From the NCBI GenBank assembly GCA_038870975.1, contig JAVZJD010000002.1, positions 64,001 to 128,000 on the forward strand: 64,000 nt of DNA, read 5' to 3'. How positions within the stretch are numbered: the stretch's first letter is position 1; every line of letters begins with the position of its first letter. Position numbers and translations under genes: made by a program. Shown one piece after another: positions 27,992-62,598 of this stretch. Source of the DNA: Candidatus Bathyarchaeia archaeon. Its GTDB lineage: Archaea; Thermoproteota; CALKCG01; B24. Under the pieces are notes generated by a model. It did not search any database, was not told where the DNA came from, and saw nothing but the letters and a program-made list of their open reading frames with translations.

Positions 27992-28098
27992 TGCGGGGGG
28001 TGGGATTTGAACCCACGAAGGGCTACCCCACAGCGGCTCTGAGGATAATATTTTTCCTCCTCAGCGCTGCGCCTTAGGCCATGCTTGGCTACCCCCGC
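27992..28098 (-). tRNA. tRNA-Leu(GAG) with 22-nt intron at 37/38 (28037-28058)
   Basis: GCGGGGG/CCCCCGC acceptor, long variable arm, GGTTCAAATCC; BHB with CTGA/TCAG central helix, 3-nt bulges and GGA/TCC outer helix. Confidence 0.93.
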
Positions 28099-28822: not shown

Positions 28823-29923
28823 GTGAGAGTTAAATTCCGCCATTCCCTCATAGACCCTAAAACTATTGGAACATGCAACTCCATATGTTTAGTAGGGGAT
28901 ATTAACGGCGATGGTTTCGTAGACGTTGTAATAGGCAATTTCACTGAATCTCCATCTGAAGAAGGCTACTTAGTCTGGTATGAGTATCCGGGATGGAAGA
29001 GACATATAGTGGCTAGAGCGAATTTAGAGGCGGGTGGGGTGTTAGTTGATGTTAATCATGATGAATGTGTAGATATTGTAGCTGGTCAACCGTACTATGG
29101 GCGTGAATTATACTGGTTTGAGAATCCCCCGGATCCTACGGACAACTGGATTAGACGTGTAATAGATAATAGTTTTCAGAAGTACCATGATCAAGCCGTT
29201 GGAGATGTGGATGGTGATGGTGAAGATGAAATACTCGTCGCCTCGCAGATTAGCAGGGTTCTAGTCTACTACGATATTCCTCCTGATCCAACAGTTTCAC
29301 CTTGGCCGGAGGAATACAGGCATCTAATATGCGATGATATTTGCGTTGAAGGTCTTGCAATAGCTGATTTAGATGATGACGGTTTAAATGAAGTTGTTGC
29401 CGGACCCAACGTATTTAAACCTCAGCCAGGTTTGAAAGGCAAGTGGTCTAGGAGAATACTGAGGGAATTCCACGCTAGAACCTACGGTGGGATAGTATTC
29501 TCTGAGACTAGAGTTCAAGTTGCCGATATAAATGAAGACGGTATCTTAGATATCGTTATGAGTGAAGCTGAAAGCGACATCGGTAGACTGGCTTGGTTTG
29601 AAGGTCCAGACTACAAGATACACATTTTAAATGAAAGCCTTTTCCACCCACACAGTCTAGCTGTAGCAGACTTCGACGGAGATAGCCATATAGACATATT
29701 CGTAGGTGAAATGCACCTTGGAAGAAATCCAAATCCAAGGCTTCTAGTGTATTTAAATGACGGTGGAGGCTTCTTCAGGGAATGCTTCGTAGTAGACGAA
29801 GGCACTGGTACTCATGAGGCTAAGGTGGCGGATGTAGGGAATACTGGTAAACCTTCTATAGTTGGTAAGCCCTTTAAACCTAAAACTCAAGTAGACCTAT
29901 GGGAGAACATCACAGGTCTATAG
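28823..29923 (+). CDS. FG-GAP/VCBS repeat beta-propeller protein, no signal peptide
   Basis: Repeated GDxNGDGxxD motifs, WYE/WFEN strands. Confidence 0.85.
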   Translation: MRVKFRHSLIDPKTIGTCNSICLVGDINGDGFVDVVIGNFTESPSEEGYLVWYEYPGWKRHIVARANLEAGGVLVDVNHDECVDIVAGQPYYGRELYWFENPPDPTDNWIRRVIDNSFQKYHDQAVGDVDGDGEDEILVASQISRVLVYYDIPPDPTVSPWPEEYRHLICDDICVEGLAIADLDDDGLNEVVAGPNVFKPQPGLKGKWSRRILREFHARTYGGIVFSETRVQVADINEDGILDIVMSEAESDIGRLAWFEGPDYKIHILNESLFHPHSLAVADFDGDSHIDIFVGEMHLGRNPNPRLLVYLNDGGGFFRECFVVDEGTGTHEAKVADVGNTGKPSIVGKPFKPKTQVDLWENITGL

Positions 29924-30117
29924 GTCTACCAAGGTTGTTGTTCAGGCTTCAATTTGACGACTCTTTCAGTAGCTGACATTAACAGGAAGGCGTTACACCA
30001 GCCAGCAGTATACGTGCTTAGATGTCGAGACTAATTTCAAACCAGCAAATGGAGGAGTCTTTATAAAAAACCATTGGTTGTCTATTGAAACGGTCTTTTT
30101 GCAGTTTAAATAGAGTA

Positions 30118-30498
30118 TTAGCTTTTTAACCACCTGTAGACCGTCTTTAAAGGTATGTTAAACTCCTCTGAAATCCGCCTCACATCGTATCCTTTATCTT
30201 TAAGCTCTTGAACCAGTTTTCTGTATTTCCTTCTCTCAGCTTTGCTAAACCTAGATTTATTTTTAAAGACCACCCTACCGTCATTGCCGAATAATGATAA
30301 TGCAAGGGTAAAAGCCTTAATGTAATTACTCTCCCTATTCACATAGCCGATTAGCTCAACACGATAGCCTTCTGCTATGTAGCTTCGCAACTGGTTTAAA
30401 ACATACTCTATGGAGTTCAGGTTTACATTTGAAGCAAACCTAACCTCTACTAGCCTATTCTCAGGTTTAACTTCAACTGAATACTTAACGTTGGACAT
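30118..30498 (-). CDS. Small regulator with C-terminal HTH
   Basis: KGYDVRRISEEFNIPLKTVYRWL HTH; SD-like GTGGTG and BRE/TATA upstream. Confidence 0.8.
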   Translation of the reverse strand: MSNVKYSVEVKPENRLVEVRFASNVNLNSIEYVLNQLRSYIAEGYRVELIGYVNRESNYIKAFTLALSLFGNDGRVVFKNKSRFSKAERRKYRKLVQELKDKGYDVRRISEEFNIPLKTVYRWLKS

Positions 30499-30549
30499 TC
30501 TTCAGACACCACTGTTGAATAAACTAACCCTAAAACCTCGCAGGTTCTC

Positions 30550-30636
30550 TTATAAACTTTTCTCATTTTTAATATTTCTTATAATGAGAAAAGTTTATAA
30601 ACCCCTTCTCATATTGTAGAAAATTGAAAATGAGAA
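30550..30636. promoter_or_regulatory. Mirror-image divergent BRE/TATA promoters with two TTCTCAT-N17-ATGAGAA operators
   Basis: 18-bp perfect inverted repeat 30550-30567 / 30583-30600; half-site pairs 30560/30584 and 30606/30630. Confidence 0.8.
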
Positions 30637-30655
30637 TAGAAAGAGGTGGTGGAGA

Positions 30656-30730
30656 ATGATTTGGAGGGCAATCAAAGTGTCGATGACTAGACATATAATA
30701 ACTGACCGAGGTCCTCCAATGAGGTTATAA
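30656..30730 (+). CDS. 24-aa micropeptide MIWRAIKVSMTRHIITDRGPPMRL
   Basis: BRE+TATA (GAGAAAAGTTTATAAA), SD GAGGTGGTGG, ATG...TAA, followed by a T7 tract. Confidence 0.65.
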   Translation: MIWRAIKVSMTRHIITDRGPPMRL

Positions 30731-30734
30731 CTGC

Positions 30735-30741
30735 TTTTTTT
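30735..30741 (+). terminator. Oligo-T terminator after the micropeptide
   Basis: TTTTTTT 4 nt after TAA. Confidence 0.5.
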
Positions 30742-30761
30742 GGGGAAATCGTTTAAACTCT

Positions 30762-31757
30762 TCATATCCCTCTTATCTTCTTGACGGCTTCAACCATAGC
30801 CTTCCAAGCACTTCCAGGGTCTTCACATGAGAGTTCAGACCCTTCTTCTGCTCTAAAACTCCAAGTAGCTATGGCATCTGCTCCAAGCTCTACTGCTTTA
30901 ATAACACTCTTGTAAACGTCTAACTCGCGTCCTTTTGGAATCTTTATAAGCTCCACCCATATTTGGCTCTTCAAATTGGCCTTTCTAGACACCTCTAAAG
31001 CCCTGTTAACCCACTCTGTAAACCATTCAAAGGATCTATTGCCCCAAATCCAATATGGATCTGTTGAAAATACGTCTAGATTTTTAAGGTTTAAAACAGG
31101 GTTCCAAGAGTATATTCCGTGCATACCTGTATGTTCAGGCATAAGGCACAGTATGTTTAAAAGCCTTCTATCAAGCTTTTTGACTTCAAATGTAAGTTCA
31201 TTTAAAAGGTTGAACAATGAATTCTGCCTAAACTTTTTAACATCATCGGTTAAACTGCCAGGCATATCATACCCATACTCTTCGTGGAAAGTTCTTCTGC
31301 AAATCGAGCATCTACAAGTCCAAACCTCAGGCCAACCCTTGGGCACTACTAGGGAAGGCTCATCCCAGAATATGCCGTCAGGTTTGAGTCTATTGACTAT
31401 TTCTCTGACGCTATTCTTAAGCCAAGCCCTGTATTCTGGATTGTTTGGGCATCCCCTGATTGGGTAAATATGCCCGTTGCTATCTACTTCACACCAATCA
31501 GGGTTACTCGGCACCGCTATGCTAAAATGTCCTGGTACGAAAAACCCGAAACCATGTACATCCACAAACACTTTCAAACCGATGCGGTGCGCTCTATCGA
31601 CTACTGTCTTTTTAGCGTTGACCATGCTAGGCCACTCATACTCGTTAACACAAAGCGTTATTGAGGTAAAACCAGCCTCATAAATCTCCTTTAAATCATC
31701 CTCAACATGGCTGGGATAAGGGCATCCATAGTAGGCTACACTAACATCCCAAACCAA
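30762..31757 (-). CDS. Putative TIM-barrel glycoside hydrolase (GH42/GHL10-like) with Cys cluster
   Basis: AGFTSI, AHRIGLKV, CPNNP, DGIFWDEP, CRCSIC, TDPYW. Confidence 0.65.
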   Translation of the reverse strand: MVWDVSVAYYGCPYPSHVEDDLKEIYEAGFTSITLCVNEYEWPSMVNAKKTVVDRAHRIGLKVFVDVHGFGFFVPGHFSIAVPSNPDWCEVDSNGHIYPIRGCPNNPEYRAWLKNSVREIVNRLKPDGIFWDEPSLVVPKGWPEVWTCRCSICRRTFHEEYGYDMPGSLTDDVKKFRQNSLFNLLNELTFEVKKLDRRLLNILCLMPEHTGMHGIYSWNPVLNLKNLDVFSTDPYWIWGNRSFEWFTEWVNRALEVSRKANLKSQIWVELIKIPKGRELDVYKSVIKAVELGADAIATWSFRAEEGSELSCEDPGSAWKAMVEAVKKIRGI

Positions 31758-54657: not shown

Positions 54658-55962
54658 ATGAATATGTCAATGACATATGTTGGCGATGATGTTACTAAAG
54701 TACGCGTAAGTAAATGGATGGCTAAGTTGGGGTGGCTTCAAATCCCTAAGGAGATTAGACGTGAGTCTGGTCTTGTAAAGGTGAGAATTGGTGGGGATGT
54801 TTACGAGGGTAGGCTTGACAACCGTGGGAGGCTTTTCTGTAAACGGTTTAAGGGTTTTCTAAGAGAGGGCTTAATCGTCGAAGTAAAACTCCATGAAGAG
54901 GGTTATGATGTTTCCCCAGCTTCAGAGCAGGCTGTTCAAGAAACTCAAGCATCCAAGGAATCGGCAGTCGTTGAACAGATTAAAGTTGAGGAGAAACACT
55001 ATTTGAAATGTCCGTCCTGTTACAAGGTTTTATATTTGACAGACTCTGAGTTCAATAAGCATCTTGACGAGTGTAAGAGAGAGAAATACGAAAATGCTAA
55101 GGAGTTGTTGGAGAAGCTTAAGACTGAGAAGGGCTTTAGAGAAGGTTCTAAGATTTTCTTAAGAGAGCATGGAGAGCTTGTAGAGGTTTCAGAGCAGGAA
55201 GCCATTGAGTACATTATACGTGAGAATAACATACATCGTTTGGTTATTGAAAATCCGCCGTTTCCAGTGCTTAAGATGGAAATCGACGCCAAACTCTTCA
55301 TGGATTTTCTAAAGCTTGTAAATGAGTTTGGCGATGAAGTTGCCTTCAAAGCAACGTATAGTGGTTTAAGCGTTAGAATGATGAATCCATCTCACGTAAT
55401 GCTCATCGATGCAACGATACCTATACAGATTATGGATAAGTATGAGTTGACGGATGAGTTTAACATCGCCTTAAATATTGAAGAGGTGTTGAAAAGCTTT
55501 AAACCTAGGAAGGGGGACAAGTTGACGCTTACCGCTGGTAGATTGGAACGCGTCAAAATATCATGTGGTAACGTAGCCAGGAAGTTTGAGCAACCTGACA
55601 TCCAATTGGATGAATTGCCTCCGTTAAAAGTGGATTTTGCAGCGTCCTTCACGGCGCCTGCAAATGAAATCTACAGGATAATGTCGAGTCTTGCCGATGA
55701 ATACACCATAAAGATATCCGTCGACGATTCCGTGTGGTTTAAGGGGAGAAACGGTGAAGGAGTATTAGATTCCCGGGGGTTGCTGGATAAAAGTGGTCGT
55801 GCTGAAGGTAGTTATAGTATAAGCTACCTCCTAGACGTATTCAAGCATATTAGAAACGTAGCTAGAATAGTTAAAGTAGAGTTTGCGGAGAATAAACCTA
55901 TGCGTATAACCGCTATGGAACCCGTTAATGTAACAGTTTACATAGCTCCATACGTTGAATGA
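54658..55962 (+). CDS. PCNA sliding-clamp fusion: N-terminal beta domain + CCHC zinc finger + PCNA (aa about 204-434)
   Basis: DEVAF...GLSVRMMNPSHVMLID, LNIEEV, LPPLKVDF, SYSISYL, EFAENKPMRI, YIAP; CPSC-x13-H-x3-C. Confidence 0.85.
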   Translation: MNMSMTYVGDDVTKVRVSKWMAKLGWLQIPKEIRRESGLVKVRIGGDVYEGRLDNRGRLFCKRFKGFLREGLIVEVKLHEEGYDVSPASEQAVQETQASKESAVVEQIKVEEKHYLKCPSCYKVLYLTDSEFNKHLDECKREKYENAKELLEKLKTEKGFREGSKIFLREHGELVEVSEQEAIEYIIRENNIHRLVIENPPFPVLKMEIDAKLFMDFLKLVNEFGDEVAFKATYSGLSVRMMNPSHVMLIDATIPIQIMDKYELTDEFNIALNIEEVLKSFKPRKGDKLTLTAGRLERVKISCGNVARKFEQPDIQLDELPPLKVDFAASFTAPANEIYRIMSSLADEYTIKISVDDSVWFKGRNGEGVLDSRGLLDKSGRAEGSYSISYLLDVFKHIRNVARIVKVEFAENKPMRITAMEPVNVTVYIAPYVE

Positions 55963-55966
55963 CTTT

Positions 55967-58591
55967 CTACTCTACGATTTTAGATACCCCATTTATCTTA
56001 TCCACTTGATAAAGTGTGTCTGCTACTTCCTCCAGCTCTCTATCGTGTGTAATTATCACCATTTGAGGCACTACCGCCCCCTCTCTGAAGAAGCTTTTAA
56101 CAACTTCCACAAGCTCCCTCCTCCTCTCCTCATCTAAATGTATCGTAGGCTCATCCATTATGATCGTTGAAAGCATTCCTGCAAGAGCTTTAGCTATAGC
56201 CAATCTTAAAGCTATTGCGATGGCAACCTTCTCACCGCCGCTGAGTAATGAGAGAGGCGTAGTTTCACCACCTCTCATAACGGTAACCTCTAAATCCTCA
56301 TCGACTGCTATCCCTGTTACGTCGAGGTTGAAACGTTCAACGTATCTAGTTGCGAGTTCAGATATGTAGGGGGTAAGCCTCTGCCTCAGCATCCTCTGAA
56401 CACCGTCTTTTGAAAATGCTCCTCTAATCTTCTCTAGTTTGGATTTAAAGTCTTCGATTTTATCGCATTTAGCTTTAAGATAAGATATTTCACTCTCAAG
56501 CCGTTTAATCTCAACCTCAAAACTAGCCCGTTTTCTCTCCTCATCATTGAGTTGTGTCTCTAAGTTTTCAAGCTTCGCTCTGCATTTTACCAGCTCCTTC
56601 TGGAGAGAATCGAATACTCTCTTAACTTCTTCATGCCTCTTAGAATCATAACCCAAGTTGTTAATAGACTCTTCAAGCCTCTTCCCCTCCTCTTCAAGCT
56701 TGAGCTTCCTACTGACGTTTTCCTCGAAGATCTTGGCTTTCTCCTCGTATTTATCGGCTATCGGTTTAAGCCTATCAAACCTCTCCTTCTTGCTTCGAAG
56801 AGCCTTTAGCTCCCCCTCAGGGTCCCTCGGTTTATAGCCGAGGCCTCTAATAAGCTCATCAGCTTCTCTTTGAATTTGAACTAAAGCCTCCTCCACCTTG
56901 GAAAGCCTTTCTCCAATTTCTCCACGCAGTTTATCAATCTTCCTAAGGATAATGTTTACTTCACGGGTCTTCTCCGCTAAGCTCCTTCTACCTGTTTCCA
57001 ATTCTCTAGATAGCTTCTCAATGTTATCTACGTCTGCAGACAGTTTGAGTAGGGCATCTATACTTCTCCTAATATCTTCTCTTAAGATTTCCAGTTTCCT
57101 CCTCTCCTCTACAGCGTAAGTACGTCTACTCTTTAAAGAATCCAATTCTTCGAGTATTTCCCGTTTAGCCTGCTCCCTATGCTGAGGGGTCAATCTAGTC
57201 CTACAGAGGGGGCATATGTCAAACTTATCTAGACTATTGAAGTCTTGAGTTAACTTATTGATTCTACCATCGATCCAACCGATTTCACCATCTTTCTCTT
57301 TAATAGACTCTTCAATCTTCCTATTTTTCTCCTCAAATTCCGCCAGCTTTTCATTTAATACCTGCTTAGACGGCTTAGGTAGAAGTCTTTCAGCTTTCTT
57401 CAATAGATTAGATAACTCATCCTCTTTCGCTTTCAATTCTGTAGCTAAATTTTCAACATCTGAAACGGCTTTAGCCGCTCTACTATTTAGAGCTATAGGG
57501 TCATCTGGCAGATCAACACTCGCTAAATCTGTTCCAGTTTTAGATGCGTAGTTGAATTCCGTGATTTTTCTAAGGCTTTCTTTTATCCAGCCTTCAGCTT
57601 CATCCATCAGTATCAATTTATCCCTTAGGTCGCCTTCTTCTCTACCATACTCCTGGAGGTCTCTAACGACTTTTACATAGCCCTCTAAAAGGTTAATATT
57701 TCCAATTTCAGGTTCTAGTTTTTCAACCTCCTCTCTAGCTTTCTTACATTCTTCGAGTTCTTTTACGATTTCTACAAGTCTTTCCTCTACATTACTTAAA
57801 TCTCGGTGAACAATATCGTACTCCTTCTTCAGGTTGTTGTAGATCTGCTCTTTCTCATCTAAGGATTGTTTTTCCCCGCTGATTAATTCGTATTCTTTCT
57901 CGAGTTTTTCAACTCCCTCCTTTAAAACACCTATCTCTCTCTTCAACTCTTCCACGGTTTTAACGCACTCGTCGTAGTTACGCTTCTTCTCCTCCAACCG
58001 CGCGCTCCTATCACGAACCTCTTTCTCAATGTCGCTCTTCAACTTCTCCACATGGTTGATTATTTCACGCATATTTTCCCATGCTCTTTCAAAAGCATCG
58101 ATACCGATCATCCTACCTATTAGTTTCTTCCTTTCAGCCGGCATGGCTTCAACAAGGCTTGTAATTTCACCCTGACGGATGAATATCGAGTTTAACAGCG
58201 TCTTACTATCCAGTTCAAGCAACTTTAAAACCTCCTGTCTTACTTGTTTTGCTGAACGGGCGATATAGCCTAAATCGCTTCTTCTAAGCGAGGCATCTAC
58301 GCGTCCACCCCTCGTCCTAGTCCACTGCACTAAGTACTCTCTATTGTCGGCTTCAAAGACAAGGGCGATCTCAGCTTCATTCGCTCCTCTTCTTATCAAG
58401 TCGTCAACGTTCTCCCCCCTGGTTTTTACGTCTTTTTCAAATCCGAGAAATGCGTGTATCACAGCATCCATGATTGCCGTTTTTCCAGCTCCATTAGGTC
58501 CCACTATGGCAGTTACACCTAGGGGAAAGTCTAACTCAGTGTTTTCATGGGATAGGAAATTTTTCAGTTTGAGCCTTTTTAATACGATCAT
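55967..58591 (-). CDS. rad50: Rad50 DNA double-strand break repair ATPase
   Basis: NFLSH, GPNGAGKT, IRQGEI, CPLC hook, LSGGE, DEPT, ITH; coiled coils. Confidence 0.95.
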   Translation of the reverse strand: MIVLKRLKLKNFLSHENTELDFPLGVTAIVGPNGAGKTAIMDAVIHAFLGFEKDVKTRGENVDDLIRRGANEAEIALVFEADNREYLVQWTRTRGGRVDASLRRSDLGYIARSAKQVRQEVLKLLELDSKTLLNSIFIRQGEITSLVEAMPAERKKLIGRMIGIDAFERAWENMREIINHVEKLKSDIEKEVRDRSARLEEKKRNYDECVKTVEELKREIGVLKEGVEKLEKEYELISGEKQSLDEKEQIYNNLKKEYDIVHRDLSNVEERLVEIVKELEECKKAREEVEKLEPEIGNINLLEGYVKVVRDLQEYGREEGDLRDKLILMDEAEGWIKESLRKITEFNYASKTGTDLASVDLPDDPIALNSRAAKAVSDVENLATELKAKEDELSNLLKKAERLLPKPSKQVLNEKLAEFEEKNRKIEESIKEKDGEIGWIDGRINKLTQDFNSLDKFDICPLCRTRLTPQHREQAKREILEELDSLKSRRTYAVEERRKLEILREDIRRSIDALLKLSADVDNIEKLSRELETGRRSLAEKTREVNIILRKIDKLRGEIGERLSKVEEALVQIQREADELIRGLGYKPRDPEGELKALRSKKERFDRLKPIADKYEEKAKIFEENVSRKLKLEEEGKRLEESINNLGYDSKRHEEVKRVFDSLQKELVKCRAKLENLETQLNDEERKRASFEVEIKRLESEISYLKAKCDKIEDFKSKLEKIRGAFSKDGVQRMLRQRLTPYISELATRYVERFNLDVTGIAVDEDLEVTVMRGGETTPLSLLSGGEKVAIAIALRLAIAKALAGMLSTIIMDEPTIHLDEERRRELVEVVKSFFREGAVVPQMVIITHDRELEEVADTLYQVDKINGVSKIVE

Positions 58592-59742
58592 GCTTCCACA
58601 CCCTCTATGGATTCTTCAACTATTTTCTTAGCTTGGTCTACTTCATCTTTCGATAAATACTCGTAGAGTTTCCACGCCAGATCCACGTACTTACCATCGT
58701 CTAACTTCTGAGCGTGTAAATATTCGCCTATAAGCCTCCTCCTTAAATCTGTGGTGTCTTCTTCGTGAAGTCTTACCATTTGTACTTGCTGAACGGTTGT
58801 TAAGTCTTTAAAGAATACATTGTACTTCAACGTTCTATTTTTAAGTAGAGCATTGAGGCTGTTTAGAATCTGCCTAGTGTTTATATTTCTACCGCTCACG
58901 TATATGTGAAGTATGGGCATCTTCCCCCGAGCCAGATTTAAGTACTTAAACAGGGATTCTTGAAGGCTCTCCCTGGCTAAATCCAACTCGACTTCATACT
59001 GAGGTCTAACATCGAGGTCTATCTTATGTACCCTCGGGTCTTCTCCATCAAAATCTACTATGTAGAATCCTCTTCCGTCTTTAACCCACGATTTTACCTC
59101 ATCCCTCCTCATAATCTCTATCGCACCTGCGTATGCAAAGTATCCCTTCTCAAACTTCGCCAAAGCCCTTGAATGTATGTGTCCGAAGGCATAGTAGGAT
59201 GCTTTCTTAGGTAGATCGGCCTCTTTAAGCTCATATGCTCCTTCGAAGGGTAGGTATTTATCCACTCCCTGATGTGCTACGAGTATCCTCTTAGAGTAGC
59301 TGTCAGCCACTTGGTCGAATTTCTGGAGCTCCGTTTTAAGCAGTTCTACGCTTCTCCCACGGAGATTAGAAATCCCTGCGATTAATACTCCATCTACTTC
59401 TAACCACTCTAATTCCCCTACTCCTAAAACTTTAACTTCTTCAAATAGACTGTGCGGAGGTAGTCCACGCCTCTTTGGGAAATCATGGTCTCCGAGAACC
59501 GTTATGAGCTTCACTCTACCCTGGAGCTTCCTTAAATTCTCCTTGAAGTTTTTTAAAGCTTTTATCGGAGGAGTGGGGGAGTCGAAGAGGTCTCCAGAGT
59601 GTATGAGAACGTCAACACGCTCCTCAAGAATTCTCTCAACTACCTCGTTAAACACGTCGTATATGTCGTTTTCCCTTTCATCTAAGTTGTACTGTCTTCT
59701 TCCAAGATGTGTATCTGATACATGTGCAATCCTCAAAATCAA
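58588..59742 (-). CDS. mre11: Mre11 nuclease
   Basis: SDTHLG, GDLFD, GDHD, AHQ, GHIH, YAG. Confidence 0.95.
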   Translation of the reverse strand: MILRIAHVSDTHLGRRQYNLDERENDIYDVFNEVVERILEERVDVLIHSGDLFDSPTPPIKALKNFKENLRKLQGRVKLITVLGDHDFPKRRGLPPHSLFEEVKVLGVGELEWLEVDGVLIAGISNLRGRSVELLKTELQKFDQVADSYSKRILVAHQGVDKYLPFEGAYELKEADLPKKASYYAFGHIHSRALAKFEKGYFAYAGAIEIMRRDEVKSWVKDGRGFYIVDFDGEDPRVHKIDLDVRPQYEVELDLARESLQESLFKYLNLARGKMPILHIYVSGRNINTRQILNSLNALLKNRTLKYNVFFKDLTTVQQVQMVRLHEEDTTDLRRRLIGEYLHAQKLDDGKYVDLAWKLYEYLSKDEVDQAKKIVEESIEGVEA

Positions 59743-61331
59743 ACACCCTCAACGATACTTTTTATCAGCCTCCTCTCCCTATTCACTTTTTCAACTAGGG
59801 AGGTACTTTCATTTTCAGCCTCCTTAACAGCCATCTTAAGCCTACCGATTATATCGATGTCGGCACCACCTTCCACTGTTTCTCTAGTTCTAACCCTCAC
59901 CATGACAGGTGCCTTAGTGACTTCACCCACTACGATGGCCTCTCCTACGTTGAGCCCTGGGAGGTCTTTCAAAAGGTCTTCACTCATCCTTTCGGAGCTT
60001 TTTCTAACTGCGTCTTGATCTTCCGGATTTGTCATCCTGAGAATTATCTGACTGTTGCATTGGCTTAAAACGTCGGGGTCTATCTTATGCGGTCTTTGAG
60101 TGATCACCGTTAGAAAGAGGCCAAACTTCCTACCTTCAGCTGCGACCTTCTTTATGACGTTCTTCGATAAGGTCTTCTCTCTGTTGGGTATGAATCTATG
60201 TGCTTCCTCGATGAAGAGGAAAACTGGGTAGCTGTACTTTTGAGCTCTTACCACTTCGAAAGCATCGTTGAGGATTCTAAACGCCATGTAATCTGCGACT
60301 TCATCATCAAGGCCTGAAAGGTCAACCACCGATATATGTTGAGGCTTAAGCAGTCTATAGATGTCAGTAGTAACATCTCCGAAAACTCTTATCCTCTGTA
60401 GTCTTCTCACGTACTTTAAAGCGGCTAGAGAATGTTGATCTCCAGCCTTCTCAAGCCTATTTATGAGGTCGTCTAGTCTATAGTCTCCCTCTTCCTTGAG
60501 TTTGCCGAGCACTTTCCCGATGGCGTTAACTATATTGGTCCACGACTCGCTTATTCCGCAAACCGTTGTAATTTCATCTATTGATAGGTCTGAAAACTTT
60601 ACCTCATAAGTCTCTACTCTACCTATCTGCTCCTCACCATACCTTCCTATGCTTTCACGCGTTCTAAACACTGTGATTCTACTGGAGAATATTCCCCCTG
60701 CTCTCTTACGGGATATGAATACGTAATCTGCATGTGGATCTAAGACTATAATCGTCGCACCTTTTTTAAGCAGCTCTTCAAGTAAAACACCAGCTGCGTA
60801 GCTTTTACCAGCTCCAGTCTGTGCAAGTATGGCTAAATGTCTTCTAAAGCCCCTTATTGAGATGCTTACAGGGACATCGGACCTAGTTATCAAGTAGCCT
60901 ATATGTAGTCCTTCCTCAGGCGGGTAAGAGTAGAATTCGCTTAAAAGGTTTGAAGGGGCTCTATATACTACATTACCTGGGTGAATCGCCCTCCTAGGCT
61001 GTAAAACCTCTCCTTTCAATGCAAACCCGAGGACTCTCGCTTTAGCTATAAGCCTCCTATCTACGAGTTGAGCTTTTATCAGCCTCTCAGCAGCCTCAAG
61101 ATTGGGTTTGTTTTCAAGGTCTAAGGCTAAGCTTAACGACGTTATCTCGTATATTTGCGCTATTATCGGAACTTCGAATTCAAACCCATCGACAACCTCC
61201 CTAGATTTTACAACTACGTACTCCCATCTAGGTGGATGTTTATCCTCATCCGCTATGAAGTAGAATTGGGATGGACTTGCCTCTCCAATCACATAGCCTA
61301 AACGCTCCAACTGCTCATGGGAATCTGACAC
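59739..61331 (-). CDS. herA: HerA bipolar helicase/translocase
   Basis: HAS barrel, HLAILAQTGAGKS, DPH, EEAHRF, EGRKFG, TQRP, LSQCN. Confidence 0.94.
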   Translation of the reverse strand: MSDSHEQLERLGYVIGEASPSQFYFIADEDKHPPRWEYVVVKSREVVDGFEFEVPIIAQIYEITSLSLALDLENKPNLEAAERLIKAQLVDRRLIAKARVLGFALKGEVLQPRRAIHPGNVVYRAPSNLLSEFYSYPPEEGLHIGYLITRSDVPVSISIRGFRRHLAILAQTGAGKSYAAGVLLEELLKKGATIIVLDPHADYVFISRKRAGGIFSSRITVFRTRESIGRYGEEQIGRVETYEVKFSDLSIDEITTVCGISESWTNIVNAIGKVLGKLKEEGDYRLDDLINRLEKAGDQHSLAALKYVRRLQRIRVFGDVTTDIYRLLKPQHISVVDLSGLDDEVADYMAFRILNDAFEVVRAQKYSYPVFLFIEEAHRFIPNREKTLSKNVIKKVAAEGRKFGLFLTVITQRPHKIDPDVLSQCNSQIILRMTNPEDQDAVRKSSERMSEDLLKDLPGLNVGEAIVVGEVTKAPVMVRVRTRETVEGGADIDIIGRLKMAVKEAENESTSLVEKVNRERRLIKSIVEGV

Positions 61332-62598
61332 GTCTATACCCCCTTGGAGTAGCAGTTCTACCGACTATTTCTTCAAACTTGGGGAGGTATATACGTTCGA
61401 AAGTCTTTCTTCCGAGCTTTACTCTTCTGTGGACGGCTGTCAACCATATGTTGTAGTCTTCTAAGCCACCGTAACCTGCTGATATTAACCTCAAAACGTC
61501 GTCTATATCTACGTCAACAGCTTCGCTAAAATCGACTTCAGAGGTATTCTTCTCTATTCCAAAAACCCATGCTGGAGCATCCACCCTCATGGGCGTGTCA
61601 AAAATTGACGGAAGAACGTAGAATGAAACAACCGCTGGTAGTTTCGGTAGTTGTTCAATAACGTGCGACGCCCATTTGATGAAATCAGCATCCTCCGAAG
61701 ATATTGGATGGGTCAACTGTAGGTATTTCACAGGGTCTGTATCGATTAATCTATAGGCTTTTCTAGCCCCAGAGGGAGGGCTTAAAATTAAAGGCATACT
61801 GTGTCCAGGTTTTCTAGCATAGCTCATTATAATTAGGAAATCCGGCTTGAGAGTGGCATACTCTATTATAAACTCTCTAATGGGCATAGGAATTCTACCC
61901 AATATGCTACTAAGCCTCTTCCTATCTAAAGCCATGCTTAGATATTTTTCAACTTCCAATACGTTTAAATTAAACTCCTCAGCCAGTCTAAAGATTATAC
62001 TCCTCATTAAAAACTCTCTGAGGAATGAAGATCTACTCTCCTTACTCAACCCAATTATAGGGGCTCTTCTTTCTTTCGCAGTTTGGAAAAGTTTGATCAG
62101 TGTTTCAAAGTACTTTACCATGAAATCCCTACTGTACGCTGAGTCTACTTCGAGAGGGATGTGTGCTAAACGCCCATAGATGGAGCCATCTATGAGAATA
62201 TAGCCTTCAAAACCCTCTTTAAGCGCTTCTAAAACGACTCTATGCTCCAACCACTCCATCATTTTACCAACAACCGCTCTGTAATTTTCATCGGAGCTGT
62301 AGTCGAAACCCGTATGTACACTTCTGAATTTGACATTGGTATTCGACAGAGCGAGAGCTCTTACGACGTAGAAAATGCCGCCGTTAGACATAACGGTGTA
62401 CTGTAGGCTACCGTCTACTGCAAGAACTCTAAATTCATCGGATGAAGATTTTGGGAGTTCTTTAAACCTCCAATATTTTTCAAACTCCCCTCTAAGGTGA
62501 ATTGCGAGAGTGGATGAAGTTGGTTTAGAATAAGCTTCATCTATCCACACTTTCTTAACCGCAAGGTCCTGCATGTATAAGTCGAGGAATTCAGGCAC
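61315..62598 (-). CDS. nurA: NurA 5'-3' nuclease
   Basis: LAVDGS, LE, LIDGS, GLSKES, AVHRRVK; operon context. Confidence 0.9.
   Translation of the reverse strand: MPEFLDLYMQDLAVKKVWIDEAYSKPTSSTLAIHLRGEFEKYWRFKELPKSSSDEFRVLAVDGSLQYTVMSNGGIFYVVRALALSNTNVKFRSVHTGFDYSSDENYRAVVGKMMEWLEHRVVLEALKEGFEGYILIDGSIYGRLAHIPLEVDSAYSRDFMVKYFETLIKLFQTAKERRAPIIGLSKESRSSFLREFLMRSIIFRLAEEFNLNVLEVEKYLSMALDRKRLSSILGRIPMPIREFIIEYATLKPDFLIIMSYARKPGHSMPLILSPPSGARKAYRLIDTDPVKYLQLTHPISSEDADFIKWASHVIEQLPKLPAVVSFYVLPSIFDTPMRVDAPAWVFGIEKNTSEVDFSEAVDVDIDDVLRLISAGYGGLEDYNIWLTAVHRRVKLGRKTFERIYLPKFEEIVGRTATPRGYRRVRFP

Follow-up and report, generated by a model that had tools for sequence, protein, structure and literature searches.

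In Pseudomonas aeruginosa, the 'proline-codon toxin' CreT consists of a Shine-Dalgarno (SD) site and a mini-ORF with the codons CCT CCG, which is transcriptionally silenced and blocks translation and growth when expressed (bioRxiv 10.64898/2026.06.02.729485); CreT mini-ORF toxins are also described in haloarchaea (PMC8501985). Two proline codons are likewise central to the bacterial arrest peptides of the RAPP/RGPP type. In particular, both RGPP and RPPP are arrest-permissive in ApdP in B. subtilis (PMC12992588), whereas ApdA and ApdP do not stall rabbit ribosomes, which has been ascribed to how nucleotide 2504 is positioned (PMC10951233). RGPP is the most avoided tetrapeptide in many bacterial phyla and does not occur in E. 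coli or B. subtilis, and replacement of its Arg by Cys abolishes bacterial arrest. In the literature, we found neither an archaeal nascent-peptide arrest sequence nor a mention of the DRGPP motif. Finally, short peptides serve in Rgg/SHP and Rap/Phr signalling, which combines a peptide with a conserved C-terminal core, a TPR-type receptor and a regulon.

The locus considered here lies in the window, i.e. the whole stretch of 64,000 nt that was analysed, which belongs to a genome of 1.85 Mb in 2 contigs, archaeal as judged from its rRNA. A gene for a 126-aa helix-turn-helix (HTH) protein and a 24-aa micropeptide gene are set head-to-head across an intergenic region of 157 bp. All parts of the peptide unit named in the preliminary description (BRE/TATA, SD, 24-aa ORF, T7 run), as well as the HTH gene, were confirmed at their positions. 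The features in window coordinates are as follows.

30118..30498, minus strand: HTH regulator gene, a 126-aa ORF with Pfam HTH_23 over residues 88-125
30549..30564, minus strand: predicted promoter of the HTH gene (TATA 30556-30549, BRE 30564-30557)
30560..30590, no strand: putative operator 1, TTCTCA-N19-TGAGAA, kept in homologues; predicted binding site of the HTH protein
30586..30601, plus strand: BRE and TATA box of the peptide gene; transcript start predicted near 30620 from the usual archaeal spacing
30606..30636, no strand: putative operator 2, TTCTCA-N19-TGAGAA, lying across the predicted transcription start of the peptide gene
30630..30659, plus strand: 9-codon uORF whose TGA overlaps the peptide ATG; its own ATG belongs to the operator half-site; not conserved
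30643..30652, plus strand: SD site, complementary to the 16S 3' end of the same genome
30656..30730, plus strand: 24-aa micropeptide ORF, divergent from the HTH gene
30698..30718, plus strand: conserved ITDRGPP core, with invariant prolines and CCT nearly always as the codon of the first one
30735..30741, plus strand: T7 run, by sequence a probable archaeal terminator

The HTH promoter is the mirror image of the peptide promoter, the two forming an 18-bp perfect inverted repeat (30550-30567 and 30583-30600). Rfam and ARAGORN gave no match at the locus, and long terminal repeats were not found around it. Four metatranscriptome runs, three of them sampled to 3-5%, yielded three raw reads and two contigs over 29600-31400, of which none fell on the cassette. 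Elsewhere in the window, a 107-nt tRNA-like gene (27992-28098, minus strand; Rfam 45 bits, ARAGORN negative) probably contains an intron or a long variable arm. As judged by eye from N-termini, the region 54658-62598 seems to encode an SMC/Rad50-like ATPase (55967-58591), an Mre11-like nuclease (58588-59742) and HerA/NurA-like neighbours, and may be the DNA repair operon commonly found in archaea.

For the HTH family, about 100 loci were gathered, 35-74% identical, copies of the window aside, and the motif was counted in the 76 distinct homologous loci for which 300 nt or more of upstream sequence was available. Each of the 76 has a divergent short frame with the motif: DRGPP in 70, DRPPP in three, which represent the most distant clade of the family, and DCGPP, KCGPP and SRGPP in one each, the variants other than DRGPP having joined the search only after being seen. 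Only Gly or Pro is found between Arg/Cys and the two prolines. An SD site with 6-8 of 8 base matches precedes the peptide start in 56 of 62 loci, and the start is situated 16-17 residues before the motif Asp in 60 of 75. The tail after the prolines ranges from 0 to 57 aa and is not conserved, five peptides terminating exactly at DRGPP, and N-terminal parts as short as 8-9 aa occur among the homologues. A T-rich tract follows the prolines within 60 nt in 52 of 62 homologues. At L048 and L080/L082 the SD site is intact and the expected ATG is replaced by ATT or ATC, which may reflect either non-canonical initiation or early decay.

Mapping of substitutions on the HTH tree revealed many changes in third codon positions of the motif (T 15, D 9, R 15, G 22, second P 14) and few in its amino acids (T 3, D 2, R 2, G 1, second P 0); the codon of the motif Arg alternates between AGA and CGN. 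Given free third positions and near-frozen first and second ones, ITDRGPP is under purifying selection at the protein level. The first Pro codon obeys a further constraint: it is CCT in 63 of 66 loci, compared to about 39% in the host background, is retained even in the distant RPPP clade, and its third position changed only twice on the tree, versus 14-22 times at the other four-fold sites. The second Pro codon is CCA or CCG in 62 of 66 loci. A back-translated ITDRGPP pattern had matches in 15 of 401 genomes, and a reversed control gave one; 14 of the 15 adjoin an HTH gene, and the fifteenth (G151), where the motif lies in no ORF of at least 20 aa, was taken as a chance match. Pfam and NCBIfam contain no family for the peptides, and in none of the annotated loci inspected had gene callers recognised the gene. 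The micropeptide gene is real and coding. The preliminary description had tied it to the HTH gene and had asked for conservation near HTH homologues; our homologue search and codon-position analysis bear this out, by co-occurrence in all 76 loci and by amino-acid-level selection on the RGPP motif.

The layout between the two genes is the same everywhere: reverse TATA, TTCTCA, 19-20 bp, TGMGAA, TATA, TTCTCA, 19-20 bp, TGAGAA, SD, ATG. The spacers of the two operators vary together (19/19 in 40 loci, 20/20 in 17) and track the HTH tree, and the gap between the palindromes varies from 13 to 18, in keeping with a single rigid protein dimer that recognises two sites. Palindrome 1 overlaps both BREs, and palindrome 2 lies over the point where the peptide transcript is predicted to begin; this geometry favours repression over activation, both the binding and the sign of control being predictions from sequence. 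A weight matrix applied to the source genome scored the operators at 39 and 30 bits, and nothing else exceeded 11. Of ten further genomes, nine matched the strict palindrome pattern, always solely within the cassette, and one (G379) gave no match. Since no palindromes were detected outside the cassette in the ten genomes with matches (the source genome and these nine), the regulator has no visible target beyond it, and the peptide gene appears to be its sole output.

The HTH family is patchily distributed, in 18 of 401 genomes of the phylum (13 genera) and in 1 of 76 genomes of one class, and its named homologues come from Bathyarchaeia, Methanomethylicia, Ca. Terraquivivens and Ca. Culexmicrobium. 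The two genes are conserved together across archaea of hot habitats in several classes of uncultured thermophiles; viral contigs yielded no relative of the HTH protein. An independent HMM search with the peptide in the 401 genomes recovered the same 18 genomes and one remnant (G196), where a single deletion took the two promoters, the SD site and the larger part of the HTH gene, and the motif reads DCGPP. All five congeners of the source genome retain remnants at the same site behind a glycoside hydrolase gene: the peptide is deleted and the HTH gene broken in G001, the HTH gene is gone and the peptide frameshifted in G002, the HTH gene is gone, DRGPP has become NRIPP and no SD site is left in G005, and only traces persist in G003 and G004. 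Damaged peptide genes adjoin an intact HTH gene at four loci (L031, L053, L058, L080), and an intact peptide gene beside a lost or damaged HTH gene was not found, an asymmetry biased by the location of most loci via the HTH gene and drawn from kin that are not independent. The loss pattern fits a toxin and its silencer, but also an effector useless without its activator; loss of the peptide after loss of the HTH gene is no less expected under an HTH activator, a point against a repressor model.

Under our preferred interpretation, to which we assign somewhat less than an even chance, the mini-ORF is silenced by the repressor and, once translated, would stall ribosomes at Pro-Pro, serving as a toxin or growth brake. 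The HTH protein would bind both palindromes and limit its own promoter via operator 1 only, whereas the peptide promoter would be shut from both sides, by operator 1 over the BRE and by operator 2 over the start site. Inactivation of the repressor, by a signal at its N-terminal domain, by proteolysis, or by a stop of protein synthesis in stress or infection, would release a ~120-nt mRNA with a strong SD site. Ribosomes would load efficiently and stall at the Gly-Pro-Pro codons, aided by the preceding tunnel segment. The stall would tie up ribosomes, tRNA-Pro and possibly aIF5A, and translation would drop, making the peptide a bacteriostatic toxin or dormancy brake in trans rather than an attenuator. 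Slightly less probable is the boldest form of this proposal: the first archaeal ribosome-arrest peptide would trap ribosomes in trans, as a toxin or dormancy switch, and its stand-alone cassette would have a transcription factor of a new family as the sole antitoxin.

Several observations speak for the proposed stall. A free tail and a mostly fixed distance from start to motif fit what is expected if translation ends at the two prolines, and the confinement of palindromes to the cassette suggests the peptide gene as the only output of the regulator. The natural RGPP and RPPP variants fit the set permissive in ApdP (PMC12992588). CreT may serve as a precedent, the cassette having CCT followed by CCA or CCG. 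The peptide HMM singles out the 18 genomes with the HTH gene and one dead remnant, and the destruction of motif, SD site or frame in congeners that lack the HTH gene shows joint decay, damaged peptides being found beside an intact HTH gene as well. In the DRPPP clade (L109:1995-2125, L110:1250-1375, L129:1690-1830), a near-perfect hairpin of about 20 bp covers the SD site and start codon; it has z of -3.8 to -5.6 and compensatory changes, its sequence differs among the three loci, and it reads as if a second lock on the peptide were needed. The twin palindromes and the closed, loss-prone circuit, which the preliminary description does not mention, favour a repressed effector or toxin over a sensor for a downstream gene.

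Other observations weigh against it. In five archaeal ORF sets (G000, G379, G087, G017, G026; 1.07 million residues) RGPP was seen 9 times with 8.5 expected; as the motif is not depleted there, unlike in bacteria, an intrinsic RGPP arrest of the bacterial type cannot be assumed. Besides the inertness of ApdA and ApdP on rabbit ribosomes, the host ribosome itself is to be considered. In E. coli numbering, the host 23S rRNAs combine a bacterial-type C2055 with C2504. The source genome (23S near 501304-502152, minus strand, of G000:C1) has U at both 2062 and 2503, together with G2499 and C2504; G077 also has U2062, and G087 and G379 keep A at 2062 and 2503. A2062 and A2503 are a pair important for tunnel sensing. 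On these grounds, any stall would need the ITD context and a high ribosome load, not RGPP alone. In two lineages, possibly decaying copies, the motif Arg has changed to Cys, the substitution that is incompatible with arrest in bacteria. As a separate observation, KGPP looks avoided in the same five archaea (1 seen versus 8.8-9.8 expected; Poisson p about 0.001, for one of 12 motifs and post hoc), and may be a translation-impeding motif in archaea.

The alternative that survives best, although we consider it unlikely, is that the released peptide is a trans effector, acting on the ribosome, RNA polymerase, a protease or a transporter via an amphipathic helix and DRGPP, switched by the HTH protein under stress and never stalling on its own mRNA. 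The peptides are usually basic (median net charge +2), and hydrophobic residues at -9, -6 and -2 have a helix-like spacing, which fits a partner-docking helix and counts against the stall. A closed regulatory circuit and the absence of RGPP avoidance in archaea also agree with a free effector, and small archaeal translation inhibitors such as Sri do exist (PMC13454478). However, the tolerance of tails up to 57 aa and of N-terminal parts of 8-9 aa argues against it, and the constraint on the first Pro codon (2 versus 14-22 changes) is left unexplained by a free peptide.

A less probable role, that of a ligand, involves the regulator itself. The AlphaFold model of the 126-aa protein (pLDDT 88) has two domains, the first of four strands and two helices, followed by a long helix and the HTH. 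The N-terminal alpha/beta domain of about 80 aa has no assigned family, and Pfam, NCBIfam and PADLOC matched the regulator only with generic HTH models. An HMM search of 1.8 billion proteins gave about six clusters that match over the N-terminal domain or the full length, all others matching the HTH only; by these matches the regulator family is small, archaea-only and undescribed. Fold searches with the whole model gave no clear match for the N-terminal domain. The best Foldseek hit of this domain was weak (RsbV, STAS, E 0.0035), and VIA-align likewise detected weak likeness to STAS (Z 4.9) and to the Rpb5 N-terminal domain (Z 6.5, rmsd 2.8, 73 aligned). The resemblance of the regulator to DUF1699 (atlas, 0.76) is weak as well, and DUF1699 was not found in the source genome. 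The N-terminal domain is likely a sensor or dimerisation module.

The peptide could bind this domain as co-repressor, as anti-repressor or, after export, as a pheromone, much like the peptides of Rgg/SHP or Rap/Phr, which we regard as improbable. The divergent arrangement of regulator and short peptide, the weakly STAS-like domain and the five peptides ending at DRGPP are in line with this, the likeness of the last to Phr pentapeptides being a lead only; peptide types and operator spacing track the HTH tree, though this is expected from linkage alone. Nevertheless, with no regulon found the switch would have no output, hydropathy revealed no signal sequence, membrane segment or other hydrophobic signal region in the peptides (median best 9-mer 1.0), and no exporter or protease recurs among the neighbours. 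A complex prediction for one regulator dimer with its 31-aa peptide (L103) scored 0.00, which weighs neither for nor against binding.

Less probable still, indeed very unlikely, is the RNA as the main agent, either an anti-SD small RNA or a structured RNA, with CCUCC of the Pro codons pairing with SD sequences. CCUCC pairs with its own SD site in 26 of 68 folds, the transcript in the window folds with z -2.9, and CCT at the first Pro is fixed even in the distant RPPP clade. Selection on T-D-R-G at the protein level, including switches between AGA and CGN, argues against this, as does folding no stronger overall than that of synonymous recodings (median rank 0.41). A general RNA structure hiding the SD site was rejected as unsupported beyond the synonymous controls, save in the RPPP clade, and no conserved 3' hairpin follows the peptide ORF. 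In the DRPPP clade (L109:1995-2125, L110:1250-1375, L129:1690-1830), a near-perfect hairpin of about 20 bp covers the SD site and start codon; it has z of -3.8 to -5.6 and compensatory changes, its sequence differs among the three loci, and it reads as if a second lock on the peptide were needed.

A classical leader or monitoring peptide regulating a downstream gene in cis, with uORF coupling, is scarcely tenable and is largely refuted by gene context: its C-terminal RGPP is as in ApdA/ApdP-type peptides and a co-oriented gene follows in some loci, but the direction of the downstream gene is random (of the representative loci, 18 have it co-oriented and 20 convergent), each Pfam family is found at most twice among 59 neighbours, a T tract follows the ORF, and the uORF is not conserved. 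Since neighbours are random in both identity and direction, cis attenuation is excluded, in agreement with the preliminary description, which had seen none of the classical kind. The 9-codon uORF that it had reported is present in the sequence with its ATGA overlap, but the translational coupling suggested by that overlap was rejected: at this position, the frames in 72 loci take any phase and length and often start with GTG, TTG or CTG, and a true ATG with ATGA overlap occurs in 5. On this evidence the uORF is a by-product of the operator half-site.

Core cas genes were absent among the 59 nearest neighbours, which included two weak matches to the Csa3 model, and no CRISPR-type repeat was found in the cassette region. 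As to individual surroundings, the cassette seems by eye from N-termini to lie between divergent pyrB- and pyrI-like genes at three loci (L068, L069, L072), and it adjoins a tRNA-like sequence at two (L034, L039). Congeners of the source genome (L252, L254, L255, L256) have a ybjQ (UPF0145) gene between an FG-GAP gene and the cassette site, and a weakly matching trace of ybjQ is found at 29940-30117 of the window, which suggests that the source lineage lost ybjQ and kept the cassette.

The above analysis points to a real, conserved and undescribed two-gene cassette, for which a function is predicted. For a single 24-aa candidate, nature supplies dozens of versions, some of them resembling loss-of-function alleles, for assay in any archaeal extract. 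This makes it possible to ask whether an RxPP nascent chain can stall archaeal ribosomes with aIF5A and a variable peptidyl transferase centre, and whether mini-ORF translation traps serve archaea as toxins or dormancy switches under a protein repressor. Even without stalling, it would represent a conserved small-protein family with its own regulator and putative operator in several classes of thermophilic archaea.

Compared with known systems, the cassette shares with CreT a stand-alone short transcript (predicted here), a strong SD site, two Pro codons (CCT, then CCG or CCA) near the stop, promoter silencing (predicted here) and the absence of a downstream gene, and like CreTA it combines a strong SD site with a mini-ORF containing consecutive slow or rare codons. 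It differs in the silencer, a predicted protein dimer site instead of a CRISPR guide, in lacking cas neighbours or a cas locus, a crRNA-like antitoxin and a conserved 3' GC hairpin, and in its ORF of 21-25 codons, which is longer than known CreT ORFs and under selection on I-T-D-R-G; its toxicity is a prediction. With the RAPP/RGPP arrest peptides (ApdA, ApdP, CruR, SecM-like; PMC12992588, PMC10951233) the micropeptide has in common R-[G/P]-P-P near the C-terminus, conserved at the protein level, a variable N-terminal part and a free tail. It differs from them in being archaeal and 24 aa long, without the signal or membrane segment of typical force-sensing members and without a co-oriented regulated gene, and its motif is not depleted in host proteomes.

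Similarly, RacR and the divergent YdaS/YdaT toxins (PMC5700377) present an HTH regulator head-to-head with a gene thought to be kept off, and the loss pattern of the cassette fits an obligatory repressor; however, the cassette is not in a prophage (no viral loci were found), its effector is a micropeptide, and the sequences are unrelated. Rgg/SHP and Rap/Phr also pair a regulator with a divergent gene for a peptide of 20-25 aa whose C-terminal core is conserved, whereas the cassette has a 126-aa alpha/beta plus HTH protein instead of a TPR receptor, and neither a signal region nor a regulon. Unlike in type II toxin-antitoxin systems, the two genes are divergent in all loci and do not form one operon; the palindromes at their own promoter are conserved and cassette-specific, with protein binding predicted. 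Because the cassette departs from each of the compared families in a defining trait, it is placed in none of them. By analogy, its mode of action would come closest to that of CreT and of RacR with the divergent YdaS/YdaT toxins, while bearing the arrest motif of the RAPP peptides.
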